Of a stretch of 64,000 nt of DNA, positions 2,858 to 34,162 are shown piece by piece (within the stretch, counting starts at the first letter, position 1; each line of letters opens with the position of its first letter). This DNA comes from Psammoneis japonica. Lineage: Eukaryota. The DNA lies in the NCBI GenBank assembly GCA_008632985.1, contig QPGO01000066.1, positions 327,771 to 391,770 of the forward strand. Reading direction: 5' to 3'. Both the position numbers and the translations under genes were made by a program. The notes beneath the pieces were generated by a model. That model was not told the DNA's origin, made no database searches, and worked only from the letters and a program-made list of their open reading frames with translations.

Positions 2858-3742
2858 TCATGGCAATGTCGCTAAAGGGAGGACCAGTGAAATAAATCGA
2901 AGTGAGTGCAGGGTTGTTGCAAGCCCAAGCCCTGTCCATTGCATCATTCCACAAACTCCGCCAATGAAATCTGCCACGTGATTGTCAACTGTGCATTTGT
3001 CCAGTGGCAGCAATTTGTCTGGAGGCGCTGGAGTGAAATCAAATGCGGCTGACATGGAAAATTGACCTGGGAATCGACTTTGCTCTTCTTGCATTTCGTT
3101 CAAATGATCCACCAGCAGCTTTCCAAATTTGCGCCTCAATTCATTGGTCGACAGAGGCACAATTCTCAGCCAGCACACACGATGCAAAGTTTTGCCAATC
3201 ATGTCATGTGGAGCAAGATTGGGACAAGGATGGCCGCTTTTGTCACAACGAGTTGCAATCATGCGGAACCCGTTTTTAAAACTCCAGCTGTTTGGGTCTT
3301 TCAGCTCTTCTCGTGCAGTGTTCATGAAGCCATCGGCAGCAGGTGTTTTTTCAACCCAACACAATTCAATGTCACCATGATTGTTTGAGTCGCTTGGAAC
3401 CTGAACAACACAAAGATGAGAGGCTTCACTTGCTTGGATGACACCGACATTGTCAATCTTTTGTTTCTTTGTTAACAAGTTCAGTGCGGTGGGTTCGGCA
3501 GAACGTTTTTGGTGCAGATCATTCTCACTGTCGGTGTTGGCAAAATCATTCATCATTTCCACTGTGGGTTTTGAGTGTCCATGTAAAATGAGATGCAGCT
3601 GTGATTGCCACAAAACATGCACAAGTCTTGTCAAAGGTGTGTCATTCGTGTTGCAAAAGGCAGATCTTGTTGCAGTTGTTTGTTGTGTTGCACGATTCCA
3701 AAGAAATTGTTGAATGTGCAGCTCATCTCGAAGTGTGAGCAT
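2858..3742 (-). pseudogene. Unidentified protein-coding remnant (hypermutated)
   Basis: 294-aa ORF with protein-like composition and no Tyr, divergent from the gene at 4192. No family recognised. Confidence 0.35.
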
Positions 3743-4191
3743 TGCTGGACAAATTGTGTGTTCGCAGCAGCAGACAAAAACAACAGTCCCCGCAAGACAG
3801 GTTGTTCTTTGTTGTTGACATGACAGGAATCACAACATCAATGATTGGATTCTGTGTGTGCTGAAGTCCCACATGTTTGTAAGAATCAACACTTTGATCC
3901 CGCTTGTGCACAACAGTGTTTGCAAGTTTGAAACAGTTGTGTCCCGGAAAAAGCAGTTTTAAAGCAAATTGATTGGTTGTCATCTGGTGTGAGGACAGGA
4001 AGTGCAAGAAAAAACATCGGCAAACAGCACTGGTCAAAAAGCAGCAGACGCAAGTCGTGGAAAGGAAGCAAGACTGAGAAAAAAGGACTTCAAAACAAGA
4101 TTCAAAAATGAAAGTGGCAGTTGTCTCACCTTGCGAGATGACAGTGTCACAATTCGGATGTGTTGTTTGTCAAAAGTCATGAGAGAACACC

Positions 4192-5826
4192 ATGCCTGAC
4201 TTCACTGAATGCTTGTCCGATTCGGCTCCACTTCTTGAGAGGGGGGAAGAGCACAATCTAACATGCGCCATTGGCACCATGACGTCTGGGCACACATTCG
4301 AACGAGATGGAAAGGTGGTCTTGTCAACATTGTTGGGCCTCAAACATGCAGCGCAAGGACAAGGCAGCAAATGTGTTTTGCATTGGAACACTCAATGCTC
4401 AACAAATGGAGCCGCTCGTCAAAGACAAAGTCAATCTGCTCCATGTGATTGCATTTTTTTCTTTGGCGATTTGCGTGATTCGAAGGGTCGATGCTTTGCG
4501 ATCATTTGCACTTCGCCTCGAGACAGCGATCAATTGTTTCGCCATGCAAAAGACAAAGCAGTGGGAGACAGTTTTCTCATTGTGGAGCCTGTCTTCACAA
4601 ACCATCTCTCACCAGGAGCTCCGATGTTGGAAACACGTCATCCGCTCCTGCCACTTAAAAATCCACAATCTCTGTTGCGCGAGATGCCGTTCCATCGTGC
4701 AGATCGGGGTGAGACACGTTTCTTTGCTTTGAAGCACAGAATTGTTGATTTTGTGTCAGCTTCGTCAGCTCAACATGACGCATCTTGTGGCGGAACGTTG
4801 TGCGACCGTCAGAGTGCAATTCCTGTCACCGGTTTGTGTGGTTGTTTCTACAAAGGACCTCCGCATGCAGTCGTCATGCAAGGATCTGTCACAATCTTAA
4901 CTGATCCCACCATTGCTGCATTCTTTAAGATTGTGAGGGAAGAAGACGGCAGTGAAGCAAGTGAAAATGCAAACAACAGCGGCGCGACGGATGGCGACAA
5001 TGAAGAAAACAATCATGGCAACAATGGGGATGACAGACGCGTTCCAGGTCCAGGTGGGACCTCGCACTGCTGAACTGTGACATCGACAGTTTTTTGAATC
5101 TCGTCGCATGTCGCGCATGTAGAATTCCACGTGATTTTTTGATGTTTTGTGTCATTTTACGGTGCACTTGTTGAGCGATCCGTCCAAAAACTTTTGACAT
5201 TTTTTGTTACAGCGCGATTCTACAATGTCTTAAAAATCGCGCAGGGCAGGTGCATTTGCAAAAACATCGAGTGGTGAGAGGCACAATTGCACCACAAACT
5301 TGGCCGTTTGTTTGATGTTGAAGATGAACACATCCATTGGTTAAATTCTCGCACTGCGGAGCTCGCACGTAGAATTCTGCGGGCCAAATGTCACACGGAG
5401 TCCCACCCAGGGCTGGAACGCGTCGACAACAATGACCACAACGAGTTGATTGTTGATGACATTGAAGAAAATCAGGAAGAAAACGACAACGAGAGAGAAG
5501 CAACATGCAACGGCAATCCAGATGGGGTTGATGTGCAAGCGCATGTTCCTGCTCGTCACGACATGTCGAATCGGTTGGCTGTTGTTGACTTTCGGAGTCA
5601 TCGACTGACCCAAGCGGTGTTTCGAAATCCTGTTTCAACGATTGATCCATCGAACTTTAACAGAGGACAATTTCGCACAAGCGTGAAACAGCTGTTTCAG
5701 TGCGTCAACGAACATGGTGGATGGACTGTGATTGCTTGGTTCCGTCAAGGAATGGTTGTGGACATGGGTGGCAACCGAAACGACGATGCTGACGAGACAT
5801 TCAGCGAAACTCAAAAGCTTGCATGA
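4192..5826 (+). pseudogene. Unknown Cys-motif protein (CxGxxCDRQ...CGC; GGWTVIAW) interrupted by a MITE
   Basis: ORFs 4192..5073 and 5287..5826 join in frame (GDD-N-NDHNEL, acidic/Asn linker) when 5036-5424 and one TSD copy are removed. Confidence 0.65.
5036..5424 (+). mobile_element. ~390-bp non-autonomous TIR element (MITE), copy 1
   Basis: Termini GACGCGTTCCAG...CTGGAACGCGTC. 4-bp TSD GACA at 5032-5035 and 5425-5428. Aligns end to end with 31598-31987. Confidence 0.92.
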
Positions 5827-6235
5827 GCTTTTTATTCCCCACTGCTGCCAACATACGAGGTGCAGCATTTCGTGCTCTGCAGCACAGGCAAGGCAACGCC
5901 AACGCACCCATTGTTGTTGACTGAGCAGTGCATCGGAAGATTCATGCAATGCATGATTGTACATCACAATTCTGCAGGTGTGTGTCTCAAAAGAATGACA
6001 GTGAGACATCGTGATGCATGTGCCAGCACAACAAGTCGTGCCCCATTTCATTGCATCGGCGCTCGTTTGGGCAAAGGTGCTGCACCATGCAAAATGTTCG
6101 CCTTTGTTTCATGCACTCTCTCTCTGCGTGCTGGCTAGAGCCCACCCGGAGCCGGCACTGTGTGTGAGACCAGTTGAGACACAGACATTGTTGTGTGTTT
6201 TTTTGTCCATTTTACAGGATTTAGATCTTCAGCCA

Positions 6236-6270
6236 GCCGGTGCAACGGTGCCCGGCACCGTTGCACCGGC
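6236..6270. repeat. Perfect 35-nt palindrome (17-bp arms)
   Basis: gccggtgcaacggtgcc-c-ggcaccgttgcaccggc. Confidence 0.85.
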
Positions 6271-7026
6271 ATTGTCATTTGGGGTTGTCCCATTCGTGGA
6301 ATGACTTGTGCACGACAATTGTGGGAAACAAGTGAGAGGCAGCATTTGTGGTTGTTTTGTTCGTGGAATGACCAATGACAAAAACAATGAGAATCCACGC
6401 AGGACAGGGCACTTGCTTTTGCAGTGCTGCGAATTGCTGAACAATTGTGCGACTCAAGTGCCCGAACGACGATTGTTGCTTCGGGCATGAAATTCGAGCT
6501 TCGCGCACGTAGAAACCATAGAAAATGTGCCAGCATTTGAGAATGTCCGATTTGTGTAGATCACGCAGCACAGCACCACGAGGTCATTTGATGAAATTCC
6601 CTCGACGACTCACACGACCACAATGAGATTTTCAACGCCATGTGCCATGCAGAATGGACATCTGCGTGAAGGGAGAATGTTGCTTCGGGCAATGACATTC
6701 GACCTTCGGGCACGTGAATCGCGCAATTGTCCAGCAATTCGCAGCGTGCAAGGCATGATGCATGTGTGGGACCGATGACTTGTGAGCCAGAAAGATTGTT
6801 GCCTTTGCAGCGAGTCTTTGCTGACATCTGGGACACACGGCATTTTGTCGCATTTGGCGACATTTTCTTAAATGAGTTGATTGTTTGTCGCGAAAAGACG
6901 CGAGCTGCGACAAAATGTCCGGGTTGGCGACAAACGGGACAGAAACATTGTCCAACCAAGTCACAAAATGATCAATGTCATTTACAACTAACCTGCACTT
7001 TGGCGATGTCGTTCAAACAAGTGGGG

Positions 7027-7680
7027 CAATTAACAGAATTTGGCGATCGATGTCATCGACGAAAATTCATCCGACAAAATTTGTCGCACCCGACAAATTT
7101 GTCGGATGTCCGACAAAATTTGTCAGCGTGCGACACGACAAGACACGACACGACAAGACACGACACGACACGACACGACACGTCACGACACGACGACTCA
7201 CGAATGAAACACCCACGCCCCCCACACACGCCAACCGCCAACGTCTCCATTGACACTGCCGGCATGTCTCTTTTGCACGATGATGCAAAGCGACGATCAT
7301 GCCGCTCTCGGCGGTCTCCATGCTCTCGTCAATGCCGGGACAACATGGTGCACTTCTGCACAGTGCAACGGAGTGTGCCGGCATGTGTTGCTGTGCTGTA
7401 CCTTTTGTCAGCACGACTGGGCACTTCTGAATGTTGGGGAGCGTTGCATTGTCGGCATGTCGCAAACGTCCGTCTGTCGGCGTTTGTCGGCTCTTGTCGG
7501 CTCTTGTCGGCGTTTGTCGTACGTTGTCGGGGTTTGTCGGGGTTTGTCGGGGCTTGTCGGGGCTTGTCGGGGTTTGTCGGATACGACAAATTTTGTCGGA
7601 CGTACGACATGTCCGACAAAATTTGTCGTATCCGACAAAATTTGTCGTACGTACGACAAAATCGCCAAAACATTAATTAA
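7027..7680. repeat. Inverted arrays of CGACAAAATTTGTCG near-palindromes with inner (CGACA)n and (TTGTCGG)n short repeats
   Basis: Motif clusters at ~7070-7125 and ~7580-7665. CACGA repeats 7131-7195 and 10-bp xxxTTGTCGG repeats 7475-7580. Outer ends AATTAA...TTTGGCGAT and ATCGCCAAAA...TTAATT are inverted. Confidence 0.8.
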
Positions 7681-8204
7681 TAAGTACAGTCTTCGCCGAA
7701 AGTTAAATTCATCATATAGCACTGTATTTGATATAACGTTTGTGTTTAGGACACGCCATCGCCAATAAAATGATGATTTTGTCTTATTTATCGCCAACGG
7801 TTGAAATTTGTCTCAAAGGGCGTTTTTCACGACAAATCGTCCAATTCATTTATGGGAATGTCGCAATTGGCGACAAAATGCCTGTGTCCCAGAGCAAAAG
7901 TCATTATTTTGACTTGGAAATGACTTATTATGGAATATTCTTTAAGTAATGGTATTATTGAGAATGACTTATTGTAACAGCCTTTTAAGTAATGTGGTTT
8001 GTTATTCAATAACTTATCATAAAAAAACCGAACGTGCCTATAAGTATTAGACATTGTGAAAAGTAGTACGTAAGTTTTGTATGGATCTGTACGGAGTGCG
8101 TATTTTGTGATCACGCTTTGTGCATGTAAAGGGCACTGCTGCATTTTCGCATTTTTGGAGTTATCGGAATCGAAATCGGGATCCGTTTGTTGTTTTAATG
8201 TTGT

Positions 8205-8517
8205 CCCAAGAGCTACTGGCTCGGGCATCGGGCTAGCTTCACTGCTACTTCGGTGGTTTCGGCTACAGTCACTCTGAGTTCTCGCTTTTAAGTGAGATCC
8301 GTTGTGAAGTTGGTCGGAAACAACTGCAAAACTACACACGTATATTGATGCCGGTATCCTAAATCTGTTGTCTTGTTCTAAAGTCGTCCCAAGAGCTACT
8401 GGCTCGGGCATCGGGCTAGCTTCATTGCTACTTCGGTGGTTTCGGCTACAGTCATTCTGTGTTCTTGCTTTTAAGTGAGATCCGTTGTGAAATTGGTCGA
8501 AAACAACTGCAGAACTT
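8205..8517. repeat. Direct duplication (~130 bp conserved, period ~183 bp) upstream of the 8534 gene
   Basis: tcccaagagctactggctcgggcatcgggctagcttca...aacaactgca occurs at ~8205 and ~8387. Confidence 0.85.
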
Positions 8518-8533
8518 TCTAAGATTTTCAGAA

Positions 8534-11500
8534 ATGGGTATACCTAGCATTCCATGGTACGGCGACGCTCCGAGGCCTCGATGGCCATCGGAACAACAAC
8601 CGGATTTAGTATTTGAGAAACCGAAAGCACCGTTCAAGTTCAAACCCGAGAACGTAAAACGATATGGATTACTTTCCAAAAAATGGAAGACGGAATCTGT
8701 CAACAGATTAGAGGTATCGGAAGCTGGGGCTTATACATTATGGGACGGACACAGTAAACCACACTGCCAAAATCCTCGTTCTGATCGTGGGAAGCTAAAC
8801 AAACTGGCAAAAGAAAAAGGTGTTCCTATCAATAGAATAAAAGGGACGTACATTGACCCTGGCGAGTTTGTGCACATTGACCATGAAAGCGATTATTGGC
8901 GTGATTGTTTTGCACCCCATTTGTCCAAGTTGGATATCAAGGGATTGGTTGACGACATATTGAAGTCTCATTCAGAAGATACTGGTGACCGTTTAAGAGG
9001 CAATGTCACTACAGGCGGTGGATATGCTTCACAAAACATACGGTTGAATGAAGAAGGAGTAACAGAACCTCAAGTCACTAAGGGGCTTAGGAAAGAGCAC
9101 GTAGAAACAATGTGTTGCATGTCTGACATACTTTATGATTGGGTAAAAGCTACTCCCGGATGGGACGAAGTACCGTTTACTGCAGACAAAAGGCGCAACG
9201 ATTACTTTGCTTCCAAACTTTGCGATAAATTTGGTCTCAACCGTATCAACAAGAACGGCAAGCAGGCACAACTGTTTGAGCACTTTACACTGGCTATGAC
9301 TTCGTTGGACGAGTTAGATCCTATTACCAAACTGGCTATATTGCTCGGATGCCATGTAGACGACTTGAATTGTAGGAAACAAAACTACAACGCTCTTATG
9401 TGTATATACTTTCATGTGTGCATTGATGGTGAGTTGTTACTATATTCTGTCTTTCATTTTTAATTCGTGCAATATACATGCTCTAACGTCGTTATTGAAT
9501 TATTTTCTATCAGGCAAATGGTATCGAATTTGTCTGATCGGATATAGTCGTCGTTGCTGCTCCGACTACTTCACTCGTTTAGCTGGCAGTGACGAATTTC
9601 TTCACCAGATGTTGAACTTCTTCCACTCCTTGCCCGAAGAGTATCGCCAAATCAATGCACGTTTCTTGCTACCATCACGTTCTGTTGGGGTTCACCATCC
9701 TTTCCCCAACATGAACAAAATGGTGTGGCACTCGGCCTTCGCCTCTGCCATACTGTGCGTGCTACGGTCTTGTCCAATCTCCATGGAGCAAGCTTGTGAG
9801 TTGCTCTTGCCAGTGGGATGGTTGACCACCCCCATTCAGATGTACGAAGTGTATAAAGGATGGGCGAAGAATGGTCTTCCCACCACCGGCAATCTCACCA
9901 AGGTGATCATCGATGAATGCGTGCGCCGTTATGGTGGGTTACTGCATGGCGACGGCAGTCGCTTGCAGCCAGCATTCAATTGCTCTACTACAGACGTGGC
10001 GATATATCGTGCATTGTTTACTCTTCTTCAATCTATTCGCAAGTCTAACGCTGGGGAGTTAGATTACGAAGGAGTAATCAAGCTTCTGACGCACCATGAC
10101 AAGAAGAATAACGTTCCAAATGTGATTGGTGTGAGGGATATTGGTGCACAGCATCTGGTTGCAGTCGGCAGCATTGTAGCCATGTACGAGGATGCAACGT
10201 TGGTGGAGCAAGCTCGGGTGTGTTCATCCACACGCACGTATAAGGTTGTCAACGAGACATTCGGAATTAGAGCTCCCGTGGTAAACGAATGTTACAAGAA
10301 GTTTGCTCGACTCACTGGTACAAATACAGCAGTGTCGGAGAATGTTGCTTGTGAACAACTCAGAACTTTGGGTGAAAATATAGACGGTGTGACGTCCGAG
10401 CTTGTCAAGAGTGGCATTTCTCAACGGATGCAGAAGAATGGCCACTGTTATCGACCCGACACTGTTCACCATGATCAATCGATCTTCGAAATTGAAAACG
10501 GCATTAGGATGGAATCCTTCAAGAAGTATCATTCGAATGAAGGAGAGGAGCACGATCTGGTGCGTCAGCCAATGGAACTTCCTCAATACAAGGTCAACAA
10601 GAGACTTGATATAGATTGTCCCTGGGTGCTGGGAAAGTTTGCATCCCTGAAACCAGTGGAAGTAAAAACTTCCGAAACATCCGTCCTCCCAGAAGATCGC
10701 AAGAAGAACGGTACTAGAAAGAAGAAGAGTGCCAAATTCAACAAAAACAGTCACTCTGGCATAGGAAGAAACTACGCATGGGAAGCAGCTCTTCGAGAAA
10801 AGATAGACAAGAATTCCAAGCTTGACTTTGAGATCACTAAATGTGAAGAGAATGATCGACCTTACTACACCAGCGTCAGTGAAGATCTCAAGTTAACGTT
10901 GACTCTCAGCAGACGAAGCGTGACTCGGAACTCGACGCGTCCCGACTTGGAAAGTATATTTGGAGCCAACCAATCAGACGGCACCTATCGAACAATAGAA
11001 TTGGCGAAATTGGCCATGACTAGTCTTGGTGCAGTAGCTTCTCGGAAAAGGAAAAGAGGGAAACGCCAATTGGTCCATTTTACAACCAATGAACAATTTG
11101 GTCGGGATCCTATTTTTACTGCCACTTTTAATTCTGTGCAACAAGTGCTTTTGCGGAAGAACTACCACGATTGCATTTTGCCATTGGAAGGACTGGTGGC
11201 ATATGAGAGAGATGTCGCGTTCTACCAGACACGTGCACAAGCCGAAGCCGCTGTCCTTCTGAAAGCTATCTTGTATCACACGTTAGGAACTAAGACGCGT
11301 TCGGAAACAAAGACAGATCCAAAATGGGCTATAGATTTTCTACCAGATTCAAGAATGAATGCTTTGGGTAGAGATTTTGTCGTGTTGCACACATGCACTA
11401 GTGCGGGTCATGGTAAAAACTCAAGAGCAGCAAATACATTGCTTGGTGTGCTATTCTTTCGAGGCGGATGCCGGATTTTGTCTATTCCTACCGACAAAAT

Positions 11501-11546
11501 GGATTTGAAAAGGATGTGGCAAGACTACTGTTTACAAAAGTTATAG
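8534..11546 (+). CDS. Intact two-exon ~975-aa protein (8534-9428, 9514-11546); candidate DNA base-modification enzyme with a TET/JBP-like 2OG-Fe motif set and an HhH/aG/PT-pyrophosphorylase-like region
   Basis: Intron 9429-9513 (GTGAGT...CTAAC...CAG) joins two long ORFs in frame. Motifs: CHVDDLN (HxDxxN), RICLIGYSR, VIGVRDIGAQHL and SENVACE. The gene model is well supported; the functional call is tentative. Confidence 0.6.
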
Positions 11547-11694
11547 TTGAAGTATGTAACCACCAGTAAATACTTGCCAATGGTTGAGCATTCAATGTTA
11601 TTGTATCGCTAACAATTGTTTCCGTATCCACAGGAATTGTCGTACAACTGCCTTTATAATGTGGCAAAATTGCAAGCTGGGGAAGGAATCGACA

Positions 11695-14600
11695 TTACGA
11701 TCGAGATTGTTGGTCATCCGTCCGTTGGCGCTGTCGACGACTTTGCTCTTCTCTGTCAATGTTTTCTCTTGTTCGTCTGTGACTGGGAACACCAGGTGGC
11801 AGCTCCATAGTTCCACAACGGATGATCCGTAAGTCATTCCCAGCTTCATTCCATTCAAGTACTTTCTCCCGAGCAATGTCATAGGCAGCCTCGGCCGATG
11901 CAGGACGTCGATGTTGGTGTATTGCATTTTGCCATGCAGCTTCGAACGTCTCTCTTTTGGCTTTGTCACCATCAAATCCGCACACAAATGCATAGTAAGT
12001 CCAAGGTCGCAGGAAATCAGATGACGACAATCTTGATCCTGATCCTCGATTGTGCTCATCAATCCGACGAAAAAGATTATTGGTGTGACCAACATATGTA
12101 GACGTGTTGTCTTTCACTGAAAGCAACAAGTACACAAATCCCGATTCATCCCTGGGATAATCAAAGTCTTTCGGACGGTATGGAAAGCATCTTAAGTCAA
12201 GCTCCGGTAGAGTCGTTTCACTCCCTTGAAATTTCTTAAGGAAGTAACACATGAAATCTGTGTATTGAGTGTGACGGAGGAGTACGTTAGCCAGAGCATC
12301 TGCTGTTTCATCAGGTTCGCCAACAAAGATGGTGTCTTGTCCACGTCATGTTCTAGACAAGAGAACTACAATCTGTTCTCGCGTCCAAAGAGAATGCTCC
12401 TTCGATGCATTGATTTCTGTCACCAAAGTTTCTATTGTTTGACCCATGATGGAGTGATTGGTGCAAGCAACTCGATGTCGCAAACCACATTGAGTCCGTC
12501 GAACTTGAAGTCCGCCTCGGAAAGAATGTGTTCTCGATGGAACACAAGGCATTGAAACTTCTCTCCATTGCAATTGAAGAAGCAAGGATTTGGAAGCACC
12601 TTGAGGAGGAAGACTCTTACATCCCTCAGGGGTGACCATCACTCGAACAGGTTCCATGTTGCGCACTTGTTGGGCCGATGGCATGTCTTCCTCGCACATG
12701 GTAGCAAGTTGCTTGGCAGAGCATTCGTTCTCTCTGTTATGTGACACTTCATAGACTGCTCCGGGAAAGAAAAGTAACTCCGACGGCATCTTTGATTCTT
12801 TGGACAGATGTTTTGACACCATGGCCGAGCGGCTAGCTCTCCAATGTCCTTCCTGCGTGGATTCTTCATCCTGAGCCATGGCCGTGACACTTGGCACGTG
12901 GCCAGTGTTGCGCATCTTGTCAATGAGCATCTTCTCTGCTTGGAAGACGGCATTCCACCTCCCGAACACCCTGAGAGCTGAGTCCGGAATGCCGGGGTCG
13001 TCCCAACCTGGGACATGATGGAAAACAGACTTGATGAGACTTTTAAACTCCAACATTGTCTCTTGTCTTAAGTCTGTTGGAAGAATTCTTGTTGTGTCTT
13101 GTACTCGTTTGCATGGTTCATCTGAAGCGGCTCTCACAGATTGCTTCAACTGAAACAATGCAAAAGATGTCAACAAAAATGGAGACAACAGTGGAGGACG
13201 ACCTCGAACTGGGGGCAACTGCAAAGGGTCCATCGCAGACATGACCAAAACGCCACCCATGAAAGCATTGGATCTGCGAATACGACGCAGCAAAACATCC
13301 AAAGCAGCAAGCAACTCCGCTGACACCTGTCCAAGTTCGTCTGTTAACAACACGTCTACGCATCTCAAGTGCAGCATTTCCTTCGGTTTACTGCACAGTT
13401 TCATGATGGCGAGTTCAGCTTGTCGTGCGGGGGACCTGTGACCAGGCCTTAGTCGAGACCATCTGTGCATGTGCCGTCCTCCCAAAGCCAATGCACGCTC
13501 GGCCATGTGAGCTGTCAACAAAGTGGCAAGGCCACGAGACATTGCCTTGATGCCCGCTGTCTCCACTCCACAAAAGGTTTTCCCACACCCCGGACCACCT
13601 GTGACACAGACAGATTTTGTGACCGTTCTAGTGTTGGCAACACAACTGTCCAATGCATTGTCCATTTTGTTGAGAACCAGACGTTGTTCCTCGAAAGACT
13701 CTCGGTTTTGTTGCTCAACATCAAAACGCACTTCGATCTCATCATGAACCGGGTTGTCAATGGCAGCTTCCAATGTTGCATCTTCAGATGGCAAAGTGAC
13801 ATTGGTCAAGTGTCTTAACCGAGCAATCAGTGTGTGGCACAAGGTGGGCTGCAATTTGTTTCGATGTTCATTCAAATCATTGTCCACCTGACGAACTAAG
13901 TGAGTTTGTGTTGCGGAAGGAGTTTCACCCAACGGAAGGCAGTCATCTGCCACAATGCCGCACAATGCTCGTTTGGCATCAGCACTCATTCTGTCAAAAC
14001 TCTGAGATCCTCCCGGAGCACACATGAGTTGTTCCCCCATGTGCCGTCGCAAGAGCCGGCGACAACATTCTTCCTCACGGCCAAGAACCAGCAGTTTGCT
14101 GCTCATTGAAGCTTGTCTCAGATTTCCGCCGGCAAATGTGTCACACTCATTGTCCATTTTACCCACACTTGTGACAAGGTGCACGACAAAAGCCTCCGGT
14201 CTGCTTGGACGGACACTGTTGAACCACACCACAGGCAGAACCTGTCCCTCATCTGAAGTGTCAAGAAAGAGGTTTGCACGTTTGGCCAACCACGTCTTGT
14301 CTCTCAATGACAACGAATGACAAGGAGCATTGGTCAAGCGGTGCAGTCGATTGAATGTGCGTTCCATTTGAATTCTTGGAGACAGGTCACCAGCAACGCA
14401 TCCAAAATCTTCATCCGTCAATGTCGCCACACATTCAATTGCCTCAGGAAGAGCTGCGACTCGCAATCTGACGCCACAATTTGTTCCATCTGTCCAGCTT
14501 GTTTTTGAGTGACACTCATCCAATGCTTCATCAAATCGCAGCTGAGCATCATCGAAGGCACCACATCCACTTAAACTGTCTCGTGTGAACCATCGGAAGC

Positions 14601-17600
14601 AATGTTTTTGTTCCCGAACAAACCGCAGCTCTGGAGGTCGAACGGCAAAAACAGTCCCAGAATCCATTGAAACACTTGAAAGCAATTGATCCTTCAGCAT
14701 GAGTGGCTCAGAAGCTGTGTGCATCCTCCAACGAGGAAATCGTCGTTTTGATTGCTGTTCGTGGCTGGGCACAACAGCTCTGCTGTCCAGGTCTCTTGGT
14801 TCTCTTGCTCGACCCGCTGGATCAACAACGCCCTCTCTTCGAAGCTTCTCGATCGTTGGCCATCTGTCAAAAGCCGGGCGCATCTCTGTGGCCCTGCAGA
14901 TGCGTGAGTGAACCTGATGTCCGTGTGCACTTGTGGATGTCCCAAAATCATGGACGTCATTTCCATCAATCCAGCCGCTCGTCCTTTTGATTGATGCTCA
15001 CAATGCCGAGAGGCCCTGTCTTTCTTTCTCTTGCATGGCAGATGAGGCAACCTTGGTGTTTGCTGGGTGTTCCATGGCAACTTCAAAGGACCTGCCTTCC
15101 TTTCCTGCGGCAATTCCCACTCGCGCTCGATTGTGCTCATCGACGCTTGCAACATGCTTTGCCAAGCATCGAGACACCAAGTGACCAGTGCAGAATTGAA
15201 GATTCTGTGATGATCTGGTTGCAGCAAAAAGACGTCCGTTGCGTGCACTTGTCTTGCCCTCTGCAGCAACGGCTGGAGGATGGTGTTTCCACGCTTCCAA
15301 TCTGGCGTCTGTTGCAACCCATCTTCCGGTTTCTTCGCTCTTCTGCGCAAGTCCAGCATCAGCCATCGCTTCACAAGCTTGTTCCGAGTGCACAATGTTG
15401 AGCAGCCTCATCGTGTGTTCATCAGCAAATGGATTCTCAAGACCATTGTCAGACACTCGACAAACAATGCCCCCATTTTTGTTCCTGCGCACGCAACGAT
15501 TGCTGCAGACGTGCAACAACAGTCGACGGGAAAGGTCTCTTGCAGCCAGCAAATCATTTTCATCCACAAGAGTGCCCTCTTCAATCAAACTTCTGACCTC
15601 ATTGACTCGAACCAAGTCACCCAAATTTCCTCGAGTGCAGCCCTCAACGACATCATTGCCCCCGGCCCATCCAACGTTGTCAGAGCATGCATGTGGGACA
15701 AATTGCCAGCAGCATCCTGGCACTCATGACGACACCAATGTCTCTTTGCAGGAGCACCAAATGGAAGCTCTTGACTCTTGGCAAGGCATGACATGAAGAA
15801 CTCTGTTGTCTCCATCCAGTTTCGCAACAGAAGCACCGCTGCCATTTGGCTCAACGACTCTTTTGCCTCTTGGCACTGTGCATGAGTTGTCACCTTGTGT
15901 TGGCTGCATGCTTCACCCAAGCATTCGTCACTGTCAAGCCATCGTTTCAATTCCTTGACCCCAAAATGATCTCTTTGGTTGCACGCAAAGGCAGCAAAAA
16001 GAGTGTGTTGTTCCGCGCTTCCAGCCGCCGACAACTGATTCACCACCGGACGGGAATCGATCATGCCAGCATCGAATGACAGAGCGCCCGTTTCCTTTGA
16101 ACGGACACCCCCCTTTCCTTGTCGTGGCGCAAAGCCCCGGCCCAGTGTGACTCGAGAGTCATTGGATCTTAGCTCCAAATTTGCCAGCGAGCCAAATGAG
16201 TGCATGAGATGTCGGGGATCCGCAGAACAGAGCAAACCGGGATCCATCGTTCTTGTCCTGATGTGATCCTCTGCACTGGCGAAACCATTCTTGGAAGTGA
16301 GTCCACTTTTGGTCAACAAGCCGCTGGGGAGAGAGCCAACAACACTCCCATCATGGAACGAACACCAAAACGTAGAAGGAAAGAGCATTGACTCTGGATG
16401 CACCAACGGCGCCGACTTTCCAGCTGCCACCGACACTGTCCTTTGCAAAAAATTGTTGGTTGTGGTGCTGCCTGCAATTTTGTGTTCTGATCTGGTCAGC
16501 AGGCTTCCACAATTGTTGAGAATGACACAACCTGGCATGCAAGTTCCTGGGGCACACGAGAAGGACGGAGCTTCTTCATCAACCGCAGGAGTGTTCAAAA
16601 ACACATCCTCTGAGAATTCAAAATTTAAACCGTCGCAAAATCCAAAAATGTCACTGAACTGTTCCGTGTTTTCAAAATCTCCATCAGGCTCAAATCCTTG
16701 ACACACATTGAAGTCATCATCCAAGACTTCTTCCCAATCTTCACAATCTGCATCGGGTGTGTCAGTGTCAGCTGCAGAGGGTGTTGCCGGAGAAGCTTCA
16801 TCATCGAAAGCATCAACGTCACCCATGTCAAAACCATCATCAACAATGTTCTGTTCCTCCCTGCCATCATGAAGCAAACCACCACCATCTTGCAGCTCAT
16901 CATCCCTCTCACTGTTGTTTGGAGCTGCGCTGTCAATGACGCCAAAACATGTCTTGTCAACGTTGGGTGGAATCTCCTTGTGATGAGCCGCGCACACTCT
17001 TGTGTTGCAACCATCGACAGGACATTGAAAGCTGCATTGTTTCACACAATCATTTGCACAACAACTGTGTTTCTTCCGAAATGGTGAAACGACCAATGGA
17101 ACATCATGGCATCGACAGCATGCCTTCGTCTGTCCCCCGAGTGATGCCAAGAATCCATCACGAACTTTGGAAAACTCCACTTGTCGACGTCGCACACAAA
17201 CGCCCACTTCCCAATTGTTGCTCAAAGCATCAATTCTAAAGTCATCATCTGTCTCACAAAAAAAAGGATGACAACATCGAACGTTGTCACCACGAAAACA
17301 CTTCCACCATCCGGGAAACATGTCATCTCCATGACGACTGCAAACTGAACCCGTCCATTTTTGGTTTTCATTGTCCCATGTCGATGCACTGACAAAGCGG
17401 AGCTCCCACTCACTCCCATCGCTTTTAATGCCATCTCGCAGTGGCGCGGCTTGAGCATGGTCTAGAGCATGAACAGCGACGATTGCGACATTGAACAGCG
17501 GATTGCGGACACGGACATCATCCGGACTCAACGCCCCCACCACAACGGAAACCCCGGACACATCCCGGAACAAACGATGGAGCTCAAAACCATTTCTGAA

Positions 17601-19670
17601 CATCGCATCCAGTTGAAGTCTGCTGTGCCGCAACAACTTTTCTCGAATTCTTTCCACCGGCCGATCTGTTGTAGAAAAATGATTTTTGCCACCCCCTCGA
17701 AACGTGCACTCTGGAAAACATTCTTTCGCTGCCATTTGCAAAACAAAACCCTGCCACGCATCGTTGCACCGCACACTGTCGTCGGTCAATTCCCACAATT
17801 GAGGCACACAAACAAGCGTGGCAACCGTGAAAAAGAGCAGTCTGTTGTTGACTCTCGATTCATGAAACGGAGGCAATGGCAGAAACTCTGCACCAAACTC
17901 TCCATTCCGACAAGGATGCACTCCAGTCAACCGTCTGGGCCAATGACTCTTGAAAGGTTCGTGAGATGCTGTGCCGCTGGCATCAATGACACGCAACAAC
18001 GGCCGACTCTCTAACTTCACAAGCTGCTGCAGTTTCAGAGCATCATGCAAAGCAACAAAAGTGGCTCCTGCCCGAGCCTCGTCCACTTCTGCCGGTGGCT
18101 TGCACTGATCAGAATGGGCCAACACATCTTCCCCTTCTTGAGACGACAAAATCCTGCCCTCTTCCTTCCACCGGCTGAACATGCCGCGCACGTCCGGCCG
18201 ATTTCTCAACGTCACGGCCTCTTGCTCTTGTCTCAACAAAGAATCAGACTCAAAGTTGTGTGTGCCCCCCAAGAACAAAGTGTCCAACCCATTGAAACTC
18301 CCCTTCATTTTGCACATTTGACACCCATTTGAAAATTCTGAACACTTCACAGACTTCATCGTCCTGGGGCGCAACACAGCAGGTGCCAACTGATCAGCAT
18401 TCTTGCCAGGTGGATTCGAACACGGATGTGCAGATGGATGAACACATCGTTTGTCATGTCCTTGATCATGCTCTCGACAGGTCATCATCACCGGGCCTTT
18501 TAATGTGGGCCGGATAGAAGGTTTAATCCGCCATCGACCCTTGCTGTGTGCCAAGTCTTCTTGCCGAGTAAAACAGTCCGGGCACGACCCAACAAGTTTC
18601 CTTCTTTTTGTTTTGCAATTCTCAAACGTCTTCATCATGGGTCCGTCCAAACAGTGCGCCATCATCACATCCAAAGGAAACTCACCCTCGCAATGTGCAC
18701 AGTCAGCACACCCCCACGGACAACGACAAATGGGGCACAATTTCCCACCCAGTGCATCAGCCAACACTCCCAGCCGCAGTTCCTCTGCTGGAACCGTCAA
18801 ATCACGGTGCCACAAAGTCATCTCATGAACAAATGAAGAAGGTCGATTTGTGGCACAATCGCGGTGGCCCCAACCTGCATTTCTCACCGACGCCACCCAC
18901 CAATGTCGCCACTCTTGAGGAATTGGACACCACACATTCGAAGCTCCGTTGGCAGCTGCAACTCGTTCATCAGAAAGTGTCATCCAGCAAAAAGCCGGCC
19001 ATGTCCATTTCCATTGTTTCGACACCGCCGGCAGCAGCTGAGCTCCATCATGTGGCACTTCCAGATGGTTGCAACACTCATCACACATCCCACACAATCC
19101 TCCAACGTCAGCGGGCACGAAACAAAACTTCTTGTTGTGCGTGCCCCTCGGAAAGTTGGTGGCAGAAACTTCCCGCACTCGAAAACTGTCAACATGAGCC
19201 AAGCCCGCATTGGCGCCATTTGTCATTTCTTCCCAATGACAATTGACACAGAAACGACCACTCCCGTTGACAGATTCATTGTTCGATGTGTCTGTGTCAT
19301 CAAAATCCGCACCCCAATCAACGGACAAATGCTGGCTAATGTCAAGTGCATTGTCAAGCATGTCGTCGACGACACCAAGACCACTGCCAGAATCAGATGG
19401 TTCCACACTGCCCCAATCACTGCCCACACTCTCTCGTGACAACGAAACACCATCGTCAGCGGTGTGCGGTGCACCAAGGGTGCCACAACCAACACTCGCC
19501 TTTTTGCAAAGACGACAATGCCCGTCATTGCAAATGAATCTGTTCTTGTGAACAAGACAAAGCTTTTTTCTGACAGCGGTCTCACGATGGCTTCTCGCCT
19601 TTTCAAACGGCATGCACCACGCCAAAATTGTGACAATTGCCTGGCAAGAAACTTGTTGTTTTCCACATTG
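11695..19670 (-). pseudogene. Giant Helitron-like RepHel: N-terminal Cys-rich region, HUH Rep, Pif1 (SF1B) helicase and C-terminal GIY-YIG endonuclease
   Basis: Rep motifs LFAAFACNQ (FxTxTCN), RHWCRHECQDAAGNLSHMHAL (YxxRxEYQ...HUH) and NLQFCTGHLVSRCLAKHV (YxxKY). Helicase motifs TGGPGCGKT, DELGQV, DPLQLPPV, LKQSVR, HSIMGQT, VVLLSR. GIY-YIG GFVYLL...YVGHTNNLFRRIDEHN is in frame behind one TGA at 12346-12348. Frameshifts near 15660 and 14900-15000. Start codon approximate. Confidence 0.88.
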
Positions 19671-22600
19671 ACATGAAAACCGTTCTGGGACTTAAACTGA
19701 ACAAGACTTGCATCGGTTGCTTGTCAGATTTTCCCCAAAATTTGGCAGTGGTGGAAAAATCGAACAACCAGCAACCAGTCGACAGCAATCCACATTGCTC
19801 AGAATCGCACCTCCATCAGGGTTGCCATGCATTGTCCTCCATTGCTCACACATCACACCCGCTGTCAACTTGTCACATGCATGACATCACTGTCCACAAC
19901 GCGAACAACCTTTAAAAACACTTTCTCAGAATCGCTCAGCAGTTGATGTCAGAATCAACAGTGCCCAAAGTGGTGCGATGTGTTTGGCCATTTTACGAAG
20001 ACCCGAACACCCCAACGATTCATGCGACCGCAGTGACGTCAAATCATGACCGCAAAAAACAGCCGAAAATCCCCAAAACGACAACATGCCTCGAAAACGA
20101 GATCATGAAGGTGTGCTTTTCTCTTTGCCAAAAAAACCGCCACGAACCATTTGCAACGAACTGGGAGTGTCATAAAAAGTCGCTGCACGATTCTTTTTTT
20201 ATGGTCGAAAAACCATGTTTTTCGTTCAGGGTCAGGCATTCATTGGCCCGCCATTCCGGTGTGTAGAGAGTTGCCATCAGATTTCAGACCGACTCCGGGT
20301 CCCTCCCTGGCGTCGACCTGTCACACGGCTGACCCACAGAAGCGCAGCCAACGGACCAAGGCTGTGTGGCATGTGCGCTGTTTGTTTCATCGTCACGAGT
20401 CTCATCTTCTGTCACACCTTCCTTCTTCGTTTTTTTGTTGTTTCGGTGGGAGCGACGACAGAGTTGGCATTGTTCAACATCATTCCTCCCATTCATTGCG
20501 GCTGGTGCAACAAACTGATGGTGGCCGTGCCACTCTACATGCGCACTGCGAAACGCGCGCGGAACATCGCGCACCCCCTGAAATTCAAACATTTGTCAAT
20601 TTGTTGCGTGGCTGCTGGAAAAGTGGAGGTTGGGACAGGGTTGCAACATTTTGTGGGAGGTTTCTGAAAAGTGGATTCTTCGTGGTGCTTGACGTTGATT
20701 CCTGCGAGGATCAGTGTTCTCTTCTTGTTTAAAACAAAATGTTGCTCAAATGTCAAAGTGTTTGAGGATCTGACTCCTTGATTTAGTGACGACTTTGTCC
20801 GAGTGATTTATGAAGTTCCATTGCATCGGTCATTTGGAAATGTCTTGGTCATCCAAAGTGAATTACAACCGCATTCGTGCACTCAGATGTTTGCTCACAT
20901 GACAGTGTTTGGCGACGATGACTCAACGAAATTTGCTTGAATGTTGAGCAATGTTTAAGGGTGACTGTCTTTCTCTGAACAAACCCGTTGTCCGTCCCCC
21001 ATGTGGGGTGAACAACCCGTGCAATGTGAGCCAAGCAAACCTTTGGTGTTGCAGTGCCCAGGTGCTTTGTTTTCTTTTTTTTGAAGCAACTGCAGCAGCT
21101 TTGTGGTGCCAGCCAAGGCACGAGCACCAACAAAGCAGGAGGGGGTGCAGCACCCTGCTTGCTGTGTTGCCCATTTTTGGGTCCAGCACCCAGCGCCAAG
21201 AGGCAAGCTGAAACGGGGCAACACACAGCTGCAAGGGGGCAGCTGCAGGCTGGAGAACAGAGCGCATTTGTGAAGTGCGTCCTGAGCTGCTCTCAGCCCT
21301 CAGGTCACAAACTTTTGGCCCTGCGGCCAGATTTTGGCCCTCATCAGAGCTGCAAAACACTCAAAATGCGGGCACTGGTGGTTTTTTGCTCTCTCCAAGC
21401 CAGCATCTTGCAGGAGAGCAGAGCAAATGTGGCAAAACACACGTGGAAAATGATGACTTTGGGTGGACTCAGCATCCCAAATTTTTGGCTTGCTTCAATT
21501 CAGTGGGCGACATTTGTGCGATGCACAACAAAAACAACAGCCGCGCACAGTGCAGCAAACATGGCAATGGCATTCAAAGTTGATGGGAGAAGCCAATCAC
21601 CCATTGTCACAGCAGGCCATGACAGTGGCACGCTGCTGCTGGCACTCTGATGACTCACGATGCTTTGTTGGTGCATTGCGGGAATGCGGGCCAGTCTCTT
21701 TTTACCTTGTTGTTGTCATCCTTTGTCGCTGGCATTTTTTTGCCTTTCTCTTTTGTTCTGCAGCGGGCTTCTGACTCTGTTGGCTCTTTGTGAATTTGTT
21801 TGCAGTTTCATTTCCTTCTGAACAGTGGCCCCAAGTCTCCAAGCCTTGCACATTGCACGTTGCTGCTCCTCAAAAATTTGACATCCAGGCAAACCTTGTT
21901 GCTGCTGCTTCCAAATCTGGCGACCCTTCCCGACCACAGCACCGCTTTTGTTCACCAATCCACCAACCCCAGCTTCTGTTGTGATTCTTCCATTGATGTC
22001 CAAGAGTGTCTTCCTTGGAATGATGTGTTGTTTGGCAAGCACAAACCGTTCCCATCATTTTGGCTTTGTGTTCTCCATTGCAACACGAGTGGTTTTTCCT
22101 CCTCTCACGACCGCAGTGTTGCCTTTGTCCACAAATGTGCTGTGAGAAGTTAGAAAAAGCATGTGCTGTCAGCCGGCAAGCAGTTGAACAAATTGACCTT
22201 GTTGTCAAGCAGGCAGAATCCACTCCAAAGATTTGTGCAAGATTTTGAGTCATTTTGGACTCACAATCAGTGCAAGATGTTTGGTGGTGGTGATGAGGAG
22301 CTTCTTTGTCCTCTGGATGTTTTCGCGCAGTGTCTTTTCAAACAGCATCAACGACATGCGTGTTGGTGCCATCATTCAGAGGCAGCTCAGCATTTTTTCC
22401 TTTTGTTTTGGGTGCTGCTGCTGACCTTGCATCTTTTTTTGCTTTCAGAGCAGTTGCTCTGTCTTTCTTTCCAATTGATCTGGAACCAGTGCCATGTGTG
22501 CAACCCTTTTCTCCATTGTGGCTGGTTCTGACTCGTGAAGACCATTGTTGACAGTTGCTCAGAAAAACCAAAATTGTGTGGGAGAAACAGCGGCGCCACA

Positions 22601-23235
22601 TTTTATGATGTGCAAGGGATCGCACACAGAACAGTGCCAGGTGCTCAAGGACATGCTTCATCAATTTTGGACATCTTGCTCAACAGCGCCTGACAAAGTT
22701 CTCATTTCATGACAGCAAACACCGCCCCACCGAAGCACAAAGTGTGTGTGCACTTCTTGGTTCTTCCTCTCAGCTCTCCACATCACATCTGTGCAGCACA
22801 CTCATCTGACTTGTTCCCACCGAGTGATCATGGCTGTGCACAAGGAAGAGCCTCATCACAAAGAATTTTTGAGACACTTAAAAAAATCCTTGAGTAAATT
22901 GTTGTTGTTTTGTTGCTTCTTTGTGGTCATTTTGAGTCTTGTTTGTGCCAAAAACTCAAAAAAGTGAGATGACAGATCCTCAGAAAATGCAAAGAAGCAT
23001 TGATTTGCACCTGGAATCTTGCAAAAATTGCAAATGTTTGTTGAGATTTCTTGTGCACAAGCAAAGCAAAAAAAAAAGCAACCGTGTGGGTCTCAGCAGC
23101 ACAGGTTCTGCATGCAAGGCATTCCATCAATTGGCAGAGGGCTTTTGCCATGTGGCAGGACGGCACTGCTCATGGTGCCAGCTGTTTGGTGTTTGAGGGC
23201 AGAGCTGGCTCTTTTCACTGAGCACCTTTTGACAT

Positions 23236-24460
23236 CATTTTTGTTTCTGTCCACAACAAAAGCAACCTTCTTCCAAGCAGGAAATGATGGCAAGTGGAGC
23301 TTGTGGCTTGCAGTTGTTTCTTTCTCAACAACTGTGCAACTGTGACAACTTTCTGGTGTTGTTCATTTCTGACAAGAACAGCGATGCTCTCATTTGTCTC
23401 ACTGACCAGATTGCACATCGGGCTGTGTGTTGCTTCATTGTCTGATTTGCACCTGTTTTGTCTTGTCATTTCTGCGCTGAATGACATGCTTTTGCTGCCT
23501 GTTTCCTGCCCTTTGTTTTTTCCATGCGTCCCACCAGCTCCTGTTGTTTTTTGCAGTCCCCACATGAGAGTGCCCCAAGCGCTTGCCCAGAAACACACCC
23601 CGGCATGGATTGCCAGGCAGATGCAGAGCTGATCAGATGGAGAGCAATGACAAGTGCCTCTCACAAAGCACCCAGGGTCACAAGCCCAAAAATGTTGCTT
23701 GTCGTTTGCAATCCAGATGGCCAACAACCTGCAAGGAAAAATGCTTGCTGCAACTGCCAGGCCCACTTGACGGGCTCCAGTTCTGGGCGGGACTCCATGC
23801 GGCATTGGGCCCACAAAATTCTGCACACAAGCTCTGCAGCACAAGAGCTCAATTGACGGAAGCACTCATCTTCAACATGTCAAACAAAAGAGCAAGTTTG
23901 CAGTGCATTCACACCTTTCCATGCTCAAAGTTTTTGAACATCCACCTGCCTCGCACCATTCCCAAGACATTTGAGAATGGCACAGAAGCAAAAAACATGT
24001 TGTGCTGAAAGTTGGCAAATGGACAGCCCAACAAAATTGTGAAACAAAAGGACACAAAATTCCACCACAAAGTCATGCAGAAATGAATGTGTGCAACATG
24101 CAGCACAATCCAAAAAACTGTTGACATCACAGTTCAGCAGTGTGAGGTCCCACCCAGAGCTGGAACTTGTCACTTTTGGCATGTCACCTCCATTGACAAA
24201 AATGTGTCAACCAAGGAGGAAGGAAATGGAGCAAAGTTCCAAATGGTGTCATTGGGTCCCGTGATGAAGTGTTGGAATTTCTGAGACTTGAGTGCGCACA
24301 AACCAGCAGTGGTTTTTGCAAACACAGGGGCTGGAGCTGCCTCCATTGGCAAAACAAAGCATTTGCACCATGCTGCCAGAAGGCATGGCCCAACTGCCAG
24401 CTGTGCCATCAGATCTGCAGAGGTGCACATTGATGGTGTCAGTCAAGGTGCCATTTGGCA
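23236..24460 (+). repeat. Dispersed ~1.2-kb repeat, copy A (copy B at ~46695-47810), containing an old MITE copy at 23769-24171
   Basis: Colinear similarity from ttgtttctgtccacaacaaaagcaacc to gccatcagatctgcagaggtgcacattga. The MITE has a TSD of ACTT. Confidence 0.85.
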
Positions 24461-27400: not shown

Positions 27401-28429
27401 GCATGTCCTCCATTGTCTGGTGACGTGCCATCACCCAGGGAGGCATGCCGCACTCTCGCCACTGACCTTCCCACTTTGTTGGAAACCATGGATCATGCAA
27501 AATCCTGTTCTTCCCCAAAAGGTCCTCCCTCCAAGCTGCCCACCTCTTGGCCGGTTGTTGCCACAAATCTCCTGGCTGTTTTGTCTCCTCCACTGGACCC
27601 CAATGACATGTCGTGGCTGGACATGTCTGCCCTCTGCCAGTGCTTTGACCCACCCAAGTGCTGATCTGTTGCATCAGAGGAAGTTGCTGCCCATGTGTCA
27701 TGCCTTTGCATCATTGACAAGGCCGCTGACACTGAGCATGTGCTGCACCATTCCACTGCTGACTTTCACCCTGCAGACAACCTGAGGGAAAACTGGCACA
27801 TGTTTTCCAACAAAACTCCCACAAGCAATCCCGCCACTGCCTCCCATGTCAAAGCTGAGTGCCCTCCTCACCTGGATCACTGCTTGGAGAAACTCTCTGT
27901 TGCTTGACAAGCAAACTCTCTCCACAAGGGCACTTTGGTTGCCCTCGTGTGTGAATTCCCACCCTTTTGCTTTTCATTTTGTTGAAGGGTGAGTCAAATC
28001 TAAAACACGACGGATTGCTTGCAGCTGAGAAAGAAGACAGACAAAGGACCAAGTTTTGCTGTGCTGGGCAGTTGCATCATCCAAAGGAGCCCGGCTCCAC
28101 CAAATCAGCCTTGATGTTTTTGATCCTGACAAAAATTGGACGCCAACAAGTCACCCAAAATCAAGGCCATGGTGGCAGAAATTCTCAGCTTAGCTCAGCT
28201 TTGCAAAAATGAGGTCGAGCTTTGGAAGCTCAGCAACCCTCCACCAGTCAACTGGTTGCTTCGACACAACAAGAGTTCAAAAGCACTGTGTGACGAAATG
28301 GGTTGTCTGCATTTCCAACAGGAGGACATCACCATGCAGGCATTGTGCATGTCCCAGACACATGTCAGTGTTGCAATGTCATTGTTTTTGCACAGTCAAT
28401 GTTTTTTCATTGCGACAAACAAGTTGCAA

Positions 28430-33953: not shown

Positions 33954-34162
33954 TGACATCAACAAAAGCACCTCATGATCATTGCAAGCAATTGCCGAAG
34001 CTCCTCATGCTGTTCTCACTCGTCGCACCACTGCAGTGCTGCTGTCTAAAGATTCAGCTGTCATTGAAAGGAGCAATGTGATGCAAGCCATCGTCTGCTC
34101 TCTGCAGCATGTGCCGGTGCCAGTCAAGATGTGGCTGTTTCTGCAACAAAAACCATTGGAAT

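Follow-up and report, generated by a model that had tools for sequence, protein, structure and literature searches.

Why should the mutation load of a mobile element fade gradually inside one of its own genes? This question is raised by a stretch of 64,000 nucleotides from the diatom Psammoneis japonica (GCA_008632985.1, contig QPGO01000066.1; contig C67 of our assembly G000, positions 327,771-391,770), hereafter the window, which is part of a 91 Mb assembly whose contigs are given C-numbers here. The window is a mosaic in which blocks with an observed/expected ratio (o/e) of TpA near zero and raised CpA and TpG alternate with blocks of ordinary TpA. One transition falls within the gene for a Rep-PIF1 helicase-GIY-YIG protein (RepHel; 11,695-19,301, minus strand) of a Helitron-like element, which by homology extends from 8,143 to 20,373 and also carries a passenger gene on the plus strand, converging on RepHel. 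In 500-bp bins, TpA o/e is 0.59 and 0.61 across 11,001-12,000, falls to 0.41, 0.21, 0.24 and 0.09 across 12,001-14,000 and is 0.03, 0.03, 0.00 and 0.00 above 14,000. There, at the high end of the gradient, begins a deeply edited domain with a TpA o/e of 0.00-0.17 in every bin (14,000-31,400). The raw TA density at this edge favours a graded change over a step by 7.3 log-likelihood (lnL) units. A reading of the sequence alone (the sequence-only reading) had proposed a TpA gradient within the RepHel gene, and both the o/e profile and the sites scored against a paralog agree with it. We consider it reasonably likely that a TpA mutator, targeted in cis to silenced chromatin and held back by the converging passenger gene, left this gradient of about 2 kb.

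The edge was scored site by site against a paralog on C22, which corresponds to 8,969-20,373 of the window at 94.5% identity and has different flanks. Just 16 transversions separate the two copies over 11.4 kb, so their split is recent. Each site was assigned to one of three classes: TA in both copies, TA in a single copy, or edited on opposite strands, with CA in one copy and TG in its partner; the last class was doubled to allow for unseen double edits on the same strand. The window has lost 0 of 141 TpA sites in 8,969-11,879. In the transition zone (11,880-14,000) the estimated loss rises from 0.24 (11,880-12,400) through 0.46 (to 13,000) and 0.63 (to 13,500) to 0.79 (to 14,000), these four estimates resting on 22, 10, 13 and 9 observed sites. 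It reaches 0.97 at 14-16 kb, followed by 0.89 and 0.87. In the deep part the ancestral TpA density is estimated at 30-40 per kb, which means that each copy underwent most of its loss separately, once the duplication had taken place. A logistic edge has its midpoint at 12,935, a scale of 422 bp and a 10-90% width of ~1.85 kb, and it describes the paralog-scored sites better than the best single step (lnL -201.3 vs -212.7, 11.4 units), also when rates are allowed to depend on the flanking bases (-299.3 vs -312.9). Sharp breakpoints caused by recombination, gene conversion or misassembly had been named as a challenge to the gradient; a single breakpoint is rejected by both fits, losing to the smooth edge by 11-14 lnL units. 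Flank context was rejected as the cause of the gradient as well, for the slope persists with separate rates for TAY and TAR, and at 13,102 and 13,281 RTAY sites have been kept in spite of their susceptibility.

Intermediate values might also arise if reads of edited and unedited copies had been mixed in the consensus. No contig assembled from the read run spans the whole zone, and the public DNA run is possibly the assembly's own source; nevertheless, contigs of the window type and of the C22 type are both present at a depth of about 85-120, and 39 of 40 other letters, among those listed (115 more lie beyond), are C22 alleles. Moreover, one mismatch-free contig of 227 nt joins five kept sites and one edited site (12,589-12,815), and mixing with C22 cannot yield sites that are edited on opposite strands in the two copies. 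We regard an assembly artefact as hardly credible. At window position 11,292, a C22-type contig from the run X1 has TA>TG where both assembled copies keep TA, possibly an allelic difference or a recent edit. Two other runs, X2 and X3, cover little of the stretch or nothing of it.

RepHel had been described as a single open reading frame. The gene is indeed single, but its frame is not open throughout, because an in-frame TGA at 12,346-12,348 (AGA in the C22 paralog) separates the helicase from the GIY-YIG part and frameshifts follow farther up, near 14,894-15,017 and 15,666. The gene was delimited by Pfam matches, homologues, tblastn and indels relative to C22. A GIY-YIG domain lies at 11,923-12,141 (minus strand; PF01541, E 3.6e-10, residues 69-141 of its frame) and a PIF1-like helicase core (minus strand; PF05970, E 1.5e-08, residues 449-598) falls within the gradient's upper half, at 13,204-13,653. 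Pfam gave no Rep hit in the RepHel frames; homologues of about 2,650-2,860 aa align across both the Rep and the helicase parts, and the Rep frame contains SHMHAL, which we take to be an HUH-like motif. Among the homologues from outside the assembly, 11 are longer (1,752-2,859 aa), and nine of these are annotated with both a helicase and a GIY-YIG family; tblastn with the protein P0001 covers 19,301-11,812 of the window.

The gradient can be followed in the Tyr content of these frames, which is 9 of 217 residues in the GIY-YIG frame (11,695-12,345), 1 of 884 in the helicase frame and 0 of 1,369 in the Rep frame. Nine outside homologues define 31 conserved Tyr columns, and the window keeps four of the nine below 13,500 and none of the 22 above, where 16 now read Cys or His. 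Conserved Trp (24 of 27 kept) and Phe (23 of 28) have largely survived above the same point. The GIY-YIG end was thought to retain its Tyr. The motifs GFVYLL, TYVG and WTYY are indeed present in the 11,695-12,345 frame and Tyr is largely kept in the domain, but 3 of 22 informative sites in 11,880-12,400 are edited, and at one edited site of this end, at 12,396, a conserved Tyr is now His.

The mutator changes A to G at TpA on either strand (TA>TG or TA>CA), at a rate that the comparison of copies puts hundreds of times above background: TpA losses of 67-97% stand against the 16 transversions between the copies. Where the load is moderate, the mutator is very specific for TpA: within the zone that is spared in the window, C22 has lost 95 of 141 TpA sites vs 2 of 1,109 other A/T sites, and a tract on C3 has lost 47 of 62 vs 1 of 643. 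Counted strand by strand, editing struck 116 of 244 sites whose A precedes C or T and 41 of 198 whose A precedes A or G, the former being mutated about three times faster. Surviving TA sites read YTAR in 77 of 143 cases in edited blocks vs 102 of 624 in ordinary blocks. Edit directions are balanced between the strands, and strand-coordinated runs, as in processive editing, were not seen (z -0.74 and -0.51). Of 30 single changes polarised by protein comparison in the saturated zone (13,500-20,373 against C22), 17 are A>G outside TpA, at CA, AA or GA, and the mutator thus has a weak off-target A>G tail there. A block of editing by a following CpG was considered and not seen, TACG being edited at 8 of 17 sites. 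The likeliest candidate enzyme would be a chromatin-recruited adenine deaminase of the TadA/ADAT type. The genome has 10 PF00383 deaminase matches (L136-L145), nine of them over the cut-off, and we take the TAY preference to resemble that of TadA-type editors.

What decides where this mutator acts? Of the same 2.9 kb that are intact in the window, C22 has lost 67% of its TpA and C13 most of it. C3 and C149 are collinear at ~97% identity over ~18 kb and have their deep-domain edits in common, and they are therefore probable alleles. In the passenger gene of C3, scored where C149 and C180 both keep TA, 47 of 62 TpA sites are lost in the first 1.5 kb, then 2 of 11, 2 of 32 and 0 of 62. This edge faces the opposite way along the passenger gene, and a scale of 400-500 bp is favoured by 3.4 lnL units, with the tract ending fairly abruptly near its position 1,350-1,470. 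Because C22 is edited where the window is kept, and because C3 and C149 differ, targeting depends on the locus and not on the element's sequence or ends: the local mutation rate is set in cis, and not by sequence, ends or a twin copy. The comparison with other copies of the element that the sequence-only reading had asked for has thus returned different edit profiles for C22, C13 and C3/C149. The mutator acts on copies after insertion. Four window copies of a second miniature inverted-repeat transposable element (MITE), all inside edited DNA, keep 18 of 25, 7 of 25, 4 of 16 and 0 of 13 TA columns, which is consistent with an edit load that accumulates after insertion. The edit boundaries of this probable allelic pair (C3:112,018-131,831 and C149:1-28,511) lie ~1.5 kb apart inside the passenger gene, with CpG loss.

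These copies also bear on a process like repeat-induced point mutation (RIP), triggered by repeat pairing and leaking into neighbouring DNA. All edited DNA that was scored is repeated, and RIP is described as leaking over ~1 kb with a distance-dependent gradient (PMC2973834). However, 8,969-11,879 lies within the same 11.4 kb duplication and C22 alone is edited there (95/141 vs 0/141), and high-copy, near-identical MITEs are unedited in 9 of 14 other copies. The chemistry runs opposite to that of RIP, and in the chlorarachniophyte Bigelowiella natans, where a TpA mutator has been reported, the target region is single-copy (10.64898/2026.01.13.699255). A trigger by pairing appears improbable here.

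A second mutational signature marks the edited tracts. Decay of CpG to TpG is the usual footprint of 5-methylcytosine, and CpG decay was polarised in C22, in C3 and in the pair formed by the window and its haplotig C529, rather than along the window's own gradient. In 8,969-11,879, loss of CpG to TpG or CpA amounts to 13 of 130 sites in C22 vs 0 of 130 in the window. C3 has lost 10 of 89 in its first 2 kb, in or beside the edited tract, vs 1 of 170 beyond. Between the window and C529 (99.7% identity, 18,550-28,550), 13 of 16 substitutions are changes between CG and TG/CA, and all four that C22 can polarise are CpG losses. A count of 46 of 365 CpG "lost" in the window's deep zone was withdrawn as a measure of methylation, since protein polarisation traces many of them to CA>CG editing of the other copy; the raw deep-zone count mixes such edits with CpG decay. 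Diatom transposons carry CG methylation deposited by DNMT5 and are co-marked by H3K27me3 and H3K9me (PMC9998398), and methylated silent chromatin is therefore a natural candidate. From the CpG decay and this transposon methylation, the edited domain would most likely be CG-methylated silenced chromatin. The idea that targeting follows a chromatin domain gains indirect support in this way, as CpG decay is found in edited tracts and is absent from spared ones.

The spared island lies at 7,450-11,879, between two edited domains, and with 0 of 141 TpA and 0 of 130 CpG lost in 8,969-11,879 it is unedited where it was scored against C22. It holds the right half of a MITE, a spacer, a pair of upstream direct repeats, the passenger gene and the 3' end of RepHel; no recognisable host gene was found in it, only the element's own passenger gene. 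The latter (8,534-11,546, plus strand) is an intact, unedited orphan of 976 codons with one GT-AG intron of 85 nt (9,429-9,513) and no internal stop. No Pfam family matched it, and a query with its exon 2 gave no homologue among 7,999 candidates and no Atlas hit at or above 0.8. Editing is lightest in the passenger-gene copies whose frame and 5' end are intact (window, C149 and C180). The edited copies are truncated or broken: C22 and C13 lack a counterpart of its 5' part, a stop and gaps break the gene in C3, and C63 is deleted. The sequence-only reading had alternatively proposed that targeting is excluded in the vicinity of expressed genes, and an intact passenger gene, lying in an island that is spared, would be in keeping with this. 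Just behind the passenger stop codon, 11,552-11,633 (plus strand) has an intron-like form (GTATGT ... CTAAC ... CACAG), which suggests a spliced 3' untranslated region or an alternative end. The direct repeats upstream of the gene (8,190-8,336 and 8,373-8,509) are kept in other copies and possibly contain a promoter or a terminal signal.

One could attribute the kept TpA sites to purifying selection on Tyr codons and splice signals of the GIY-YIG part and the passenger gene, acting site by site or by removal of haplotypes in which edited tracts extend into the gene. Constraint on the passenger gene is visible, with pN/pS at 0.14-0.18 against three other copies. However, 94 of 137 TA sites in 8,969-11,694 have a silent or non-coding route of loss and none of them is lost in the window, which speaks against site-wise selection, and 28 of 40 kept TA sites in the RepHel frame have a silent route. 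The GIY-YIG part sits behind an in-frame stop, and four other copies of the passenger gene are edited. Selection is a very improbable explanation, with some probability left for its action on whole haplotypes.

Taken together, the gradient could have formed as follows. A TpA-directed A-to-G mutator acts on inserted copies, at a local rate set by the locus. A silenced, CG-methylated domain presumably nucleates over the dead RepHel gene, and the intact, probably transcribed passenger gene, which converges on RepHel, may hold this domain back. If the boundary is not fixed, exposure averaged over time would fall by a factor of e over each 400-500 bp or so, and this decay would be written into the helicase and GIY-YIG parts as a mutation gradient of 2 kb.

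The sequence-only reading had listed similar soft edges at ~7.4-7.7, ~37.1-37.6 and ~51.6-51.9 kb. The other edges of the window give a mixed picture: of seven edges fitted to raw TA density, RepHel alone is clearly wide. Four (0.5, 7.4-7.6, 51.6-51.8 and 62.0 kb) are best described as sharp steps, and at 37.5 and 40.8 kb a slope is weakly favoured (2.2 and 3.1 units). The supposed soft edge at 7.4-7.7 kb is an abrupt switch, edited through 7,412 and kept from 7,450, inside a MITE with terminal inverted repeats (TIRs; 6,830-7,890). The window copy was aligned with 14 others from roughly 35 listed places. Of these 15 copies, nine are essentially unedited, several of them inside edited DNA, one is aligned in part, one is fully edited and four are half-edited. 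In all four half-edited copies the more edited half faces a TA-poor flank: edited TA columns number 24 of 28 in the left and 3 of 24 in the right half of the window copy, 21 of 28 vs 5 of 23 in L030 and 24 of 28 vs 3 of 25 in L038; in L042 the polarity is reversed (9 of 27 vs 14 of 25). A CG-rich subterminal tandem array (7,456-7,610) adjoins the edit boundary in three copies, and susceptible TA sites in this array survive in the heavily edited L042 and L043. A bound protein may pin the boundary at the array. A copy of the second MITE at 31,597-31,987 is young, with 18 of 25 TA columns kept, and forms an unedited island within the deep domain.

At ~37.1-37.6 kb the edge belongs to a TIR element (32,767-37,519; inverted repeat I11), which encodes a RING finger and was labelled Academ in the sequence-only reading. 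In the comparison with C229, editing reaches to ~350 bp from the right TIR, which keeps one TA. The difference between gtacgcc in the right and gtgcgcc in the left TIR, cited as a sign of softness, exists, but it is one site; the last 250-bp bin has three kept sites and one discordant site, and dense TA resumes outside the TIR, from 37,523. The edge at 51.6-52.1 kb lies in a dispersed repeat (50,206-52,168), identified from its other copies; a host gene (52,631-60,136, minus strand) has its 3' end ~460 bp away from this repeat. Comparison with a copy of 85% identity shows partial loss over ~500 bp inside the repeat, although the raw density fits a step. That editing does not follow element boundaries is therefore borne out by the RepHel edge, the MITE at 7.4 kb, the edge at 51.6 kb and the sister copies, and is contradicted by the edge at 37.5 kb, which lies at a TIR; for young insertions, unedited inside edited DNA, it fails. 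The host gene at 52,631-60,136 encodes an intron-free repeat protein of 2,501 aa (DUF11/DUF7507) with tandem repeats of 345-348 bp and 80-92% identity, and is unedited although repetitive. A Cys-rich DUF7640 repeat protein is encoded at 38,365-39,612 (plus strand) in a spared block between two edited domains, with lowish TpA in front of it (37.5-38.5 kb). The host gene that ends at the left edge of the window encodes methionine gamma-lyase; its highest-ranking named homologues come from diatoms (Cyclotella, Stephanocyclus, Thalassiosira, Fragilariopsis, Seminavis, Odontella and Cylindrotheca). Host genes in the 20 kb upstream of the window have a TpA o/e of 0.35-0.86.

The ends of the Helitron-like element were placed by its copies, which start at 8,143-8,188 (C180, C3 and C63) and end at 20,343-20,373 (C22, C9, C11, C108 and C138). 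Canonical Helitron termini, either a 5' TC with a 3' hairpin and CTRR or short TIRs with a TT target, were not identified, and editing obscures such motifs. The C13 copy has further collinear matches upstream, to 3,276-4,790 and 6,158-6,309 of the window, and the mobile unit may on this basis extend well to the left of 8,143.

Several observations weigh against a mobile silencing boundary as the source of the gradient. A two-step staircase with breaks at 11,880 and 13,464 and levels of 0, 0.35 and 0.92 reaches a lnL of -202.05 vs -201.32 for the smooth edge, with one extra parameter; as it fits equally well, a smooth and a stepped edge are indistinguishable. Most other edges of the window are sharp, and in three independently edited copies of the MITE the switch falls at one and the same column inside it, which shows that a boundary can be fixed by features of the sequence. 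The CG/TG differences in the deep zone are in part off-target CA>CG edits (8 of 17 polarised CG differences). Transversions between the window and C22 number 12 in 4,531 bp to the left of 13,500 and 4 in 6,873 bp to the right (p = 0.008). Finally, the passenger gene may be intact because it escaped the mutator, rather than having escaped because it is intact.

The staircase could reflect a few editing episodes on nested tracts with sharp, differing ends, for example at ~13.46 kb and, for a weaker or shorter-lived episode, at ~11.88 kb. Targeting would still be positional, without continuous spreading. This history would also suit the C3 tract, whose end is fairly abrupt and favours a slope by 3.4 lnL units only, and the report that the Bigelowiella process is active in only some lines (10.64898/2026.01.13.699255). 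On the other hand, loss keeps climbing through the middle zone (0.24, 0.46 and 0.63, from small counts), the edits are without strand runs, and the TA columns kept in the second MITE look like steady, age-related accumulation. Discrete episodes are unlikely, though not negligibly so. The transversions, in turn, recall a scenario in which recombination or gene conversion gave the window copy an unedited left arm, with a crossover at ~13.2-13.5 kb, into which editing later leaked back. When polarised, the excess is common to both copies, and a crossover with later leakage retains some probability because transversions are denser to the left of 13,500. A single breakpoint is rejected, however, and the 57 informative sites would make a pure mosaic only with 23 switches. 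At least nine matches in the assembly include no near-identical copy that is unedited and could have served as donor for 11.9-14 kb, and position-dependent partial editing is still required for 11.9-13.5 kb. We consider such an origin doubtful. Seen as a density, transversions in 8,969-13,500 are ~4.5 times as frequent as in the deep zone and may mark a recombinant copy.

A silenced domain held back by the converging passenger gene is thus the explanation that we favour for the gradient. More tentatively, and short of an even chance in our estimation, diatoms may possess a chromatin-guided adenine-editing defence, in which a deaminase at CG-methylated heterochromatin rewrites TAY, edit density is a fossil map of occupancy and a transcribed passenger lets part of an element escape. 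If so, the position and softness of silencing boundaries and their allele-specific shifts could be read from sequence alone, and epialleles would become permanent mutations in neighbouring genes. Genes next to silenced blocks would suffer Tyr>Cys/His changes and lose stop codons, as a mirror image of fungal RIP leakage. How the mutator chooses its targets is an open question left by the sole published case. To this question the locus contributes a measured edge, a twin copy as internal control, two probable alleles whose boundaries differ and co-located CpG decay, which together argue for a chromatin signal in cis over repeat pairing or recognition of the element.

Like other Helitron-like elements, the element joins a Rep, presumably of the HUH type, and a PIF1 helicase in one protein. 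It differs from the known ones in carrying a convergent orphan gene of 976 codons. A GIY-YIG domain has been reported in one HLE2 family (PMC11417382). Diatom methylation islands are silenced domains centred on transposons; they mostly spare genes and show some spreading within ~1 kb (PMC9998398). In the tracts edited here, CpG decay coincides with TpA loss; methylation accounts for CpG>TpG only, and adenine mutagenesis is not described in the available part of that source. Our literature search returned no paper on TpA loss in diatom repeats, and such a mutator appeared only in the preprint on B. natans, in which integrated viral DNA is reported to be hypermutated at TpA (Mettrop et al., bioRxiv 10.64898/2026.01.13.699255). 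There, an adenosine deaminase, with an ADAT2-like candidate, is proposed, without demonstration, and the rate is about 1000-fold above background in some lines only. Both systems convert TpA to TpG or CpA on both strands, regionally, far above background and without need of a second copy, and both leave TpA-poor, CpA/TpG-rich clusters enriched in mobile or foreign DNA. The window matches this type, its editing being regional and on mobile DNA with host genes spared. Unlike in the chlorarachniophyte, the targets in the diatom are a Helitron-like element, MITEs and other repeats, the loss reaches 90-97%, and rates are inferred from copies, whereas those in Bigelowiella were measured directly. 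In a term search, the main text of the preprint contains none of the words "gradient", "boundary", "spread" or "flank", and the part available reports no preference for the 3' base or link to CpG decay. RIP likewise hits repeats with transitions at a particular dinucleotide, and its edges show a distance-dependent fringe that extends over ~1 kb (PMC2973834). RIP, a premeiotic process that depends on RID, changes C to T at CpA and thereby creates TpA, whereas here TpA is lost and CpA/TpG are gained; RIP mutates both partners of a duplication, whereas here one partner escaped over 2.9 kb. The edge in RepHel resembles RIP leakage in being graded, on a scale of 400-500 bp, and differs from it in that the fade lies inside the repeat and not outside.

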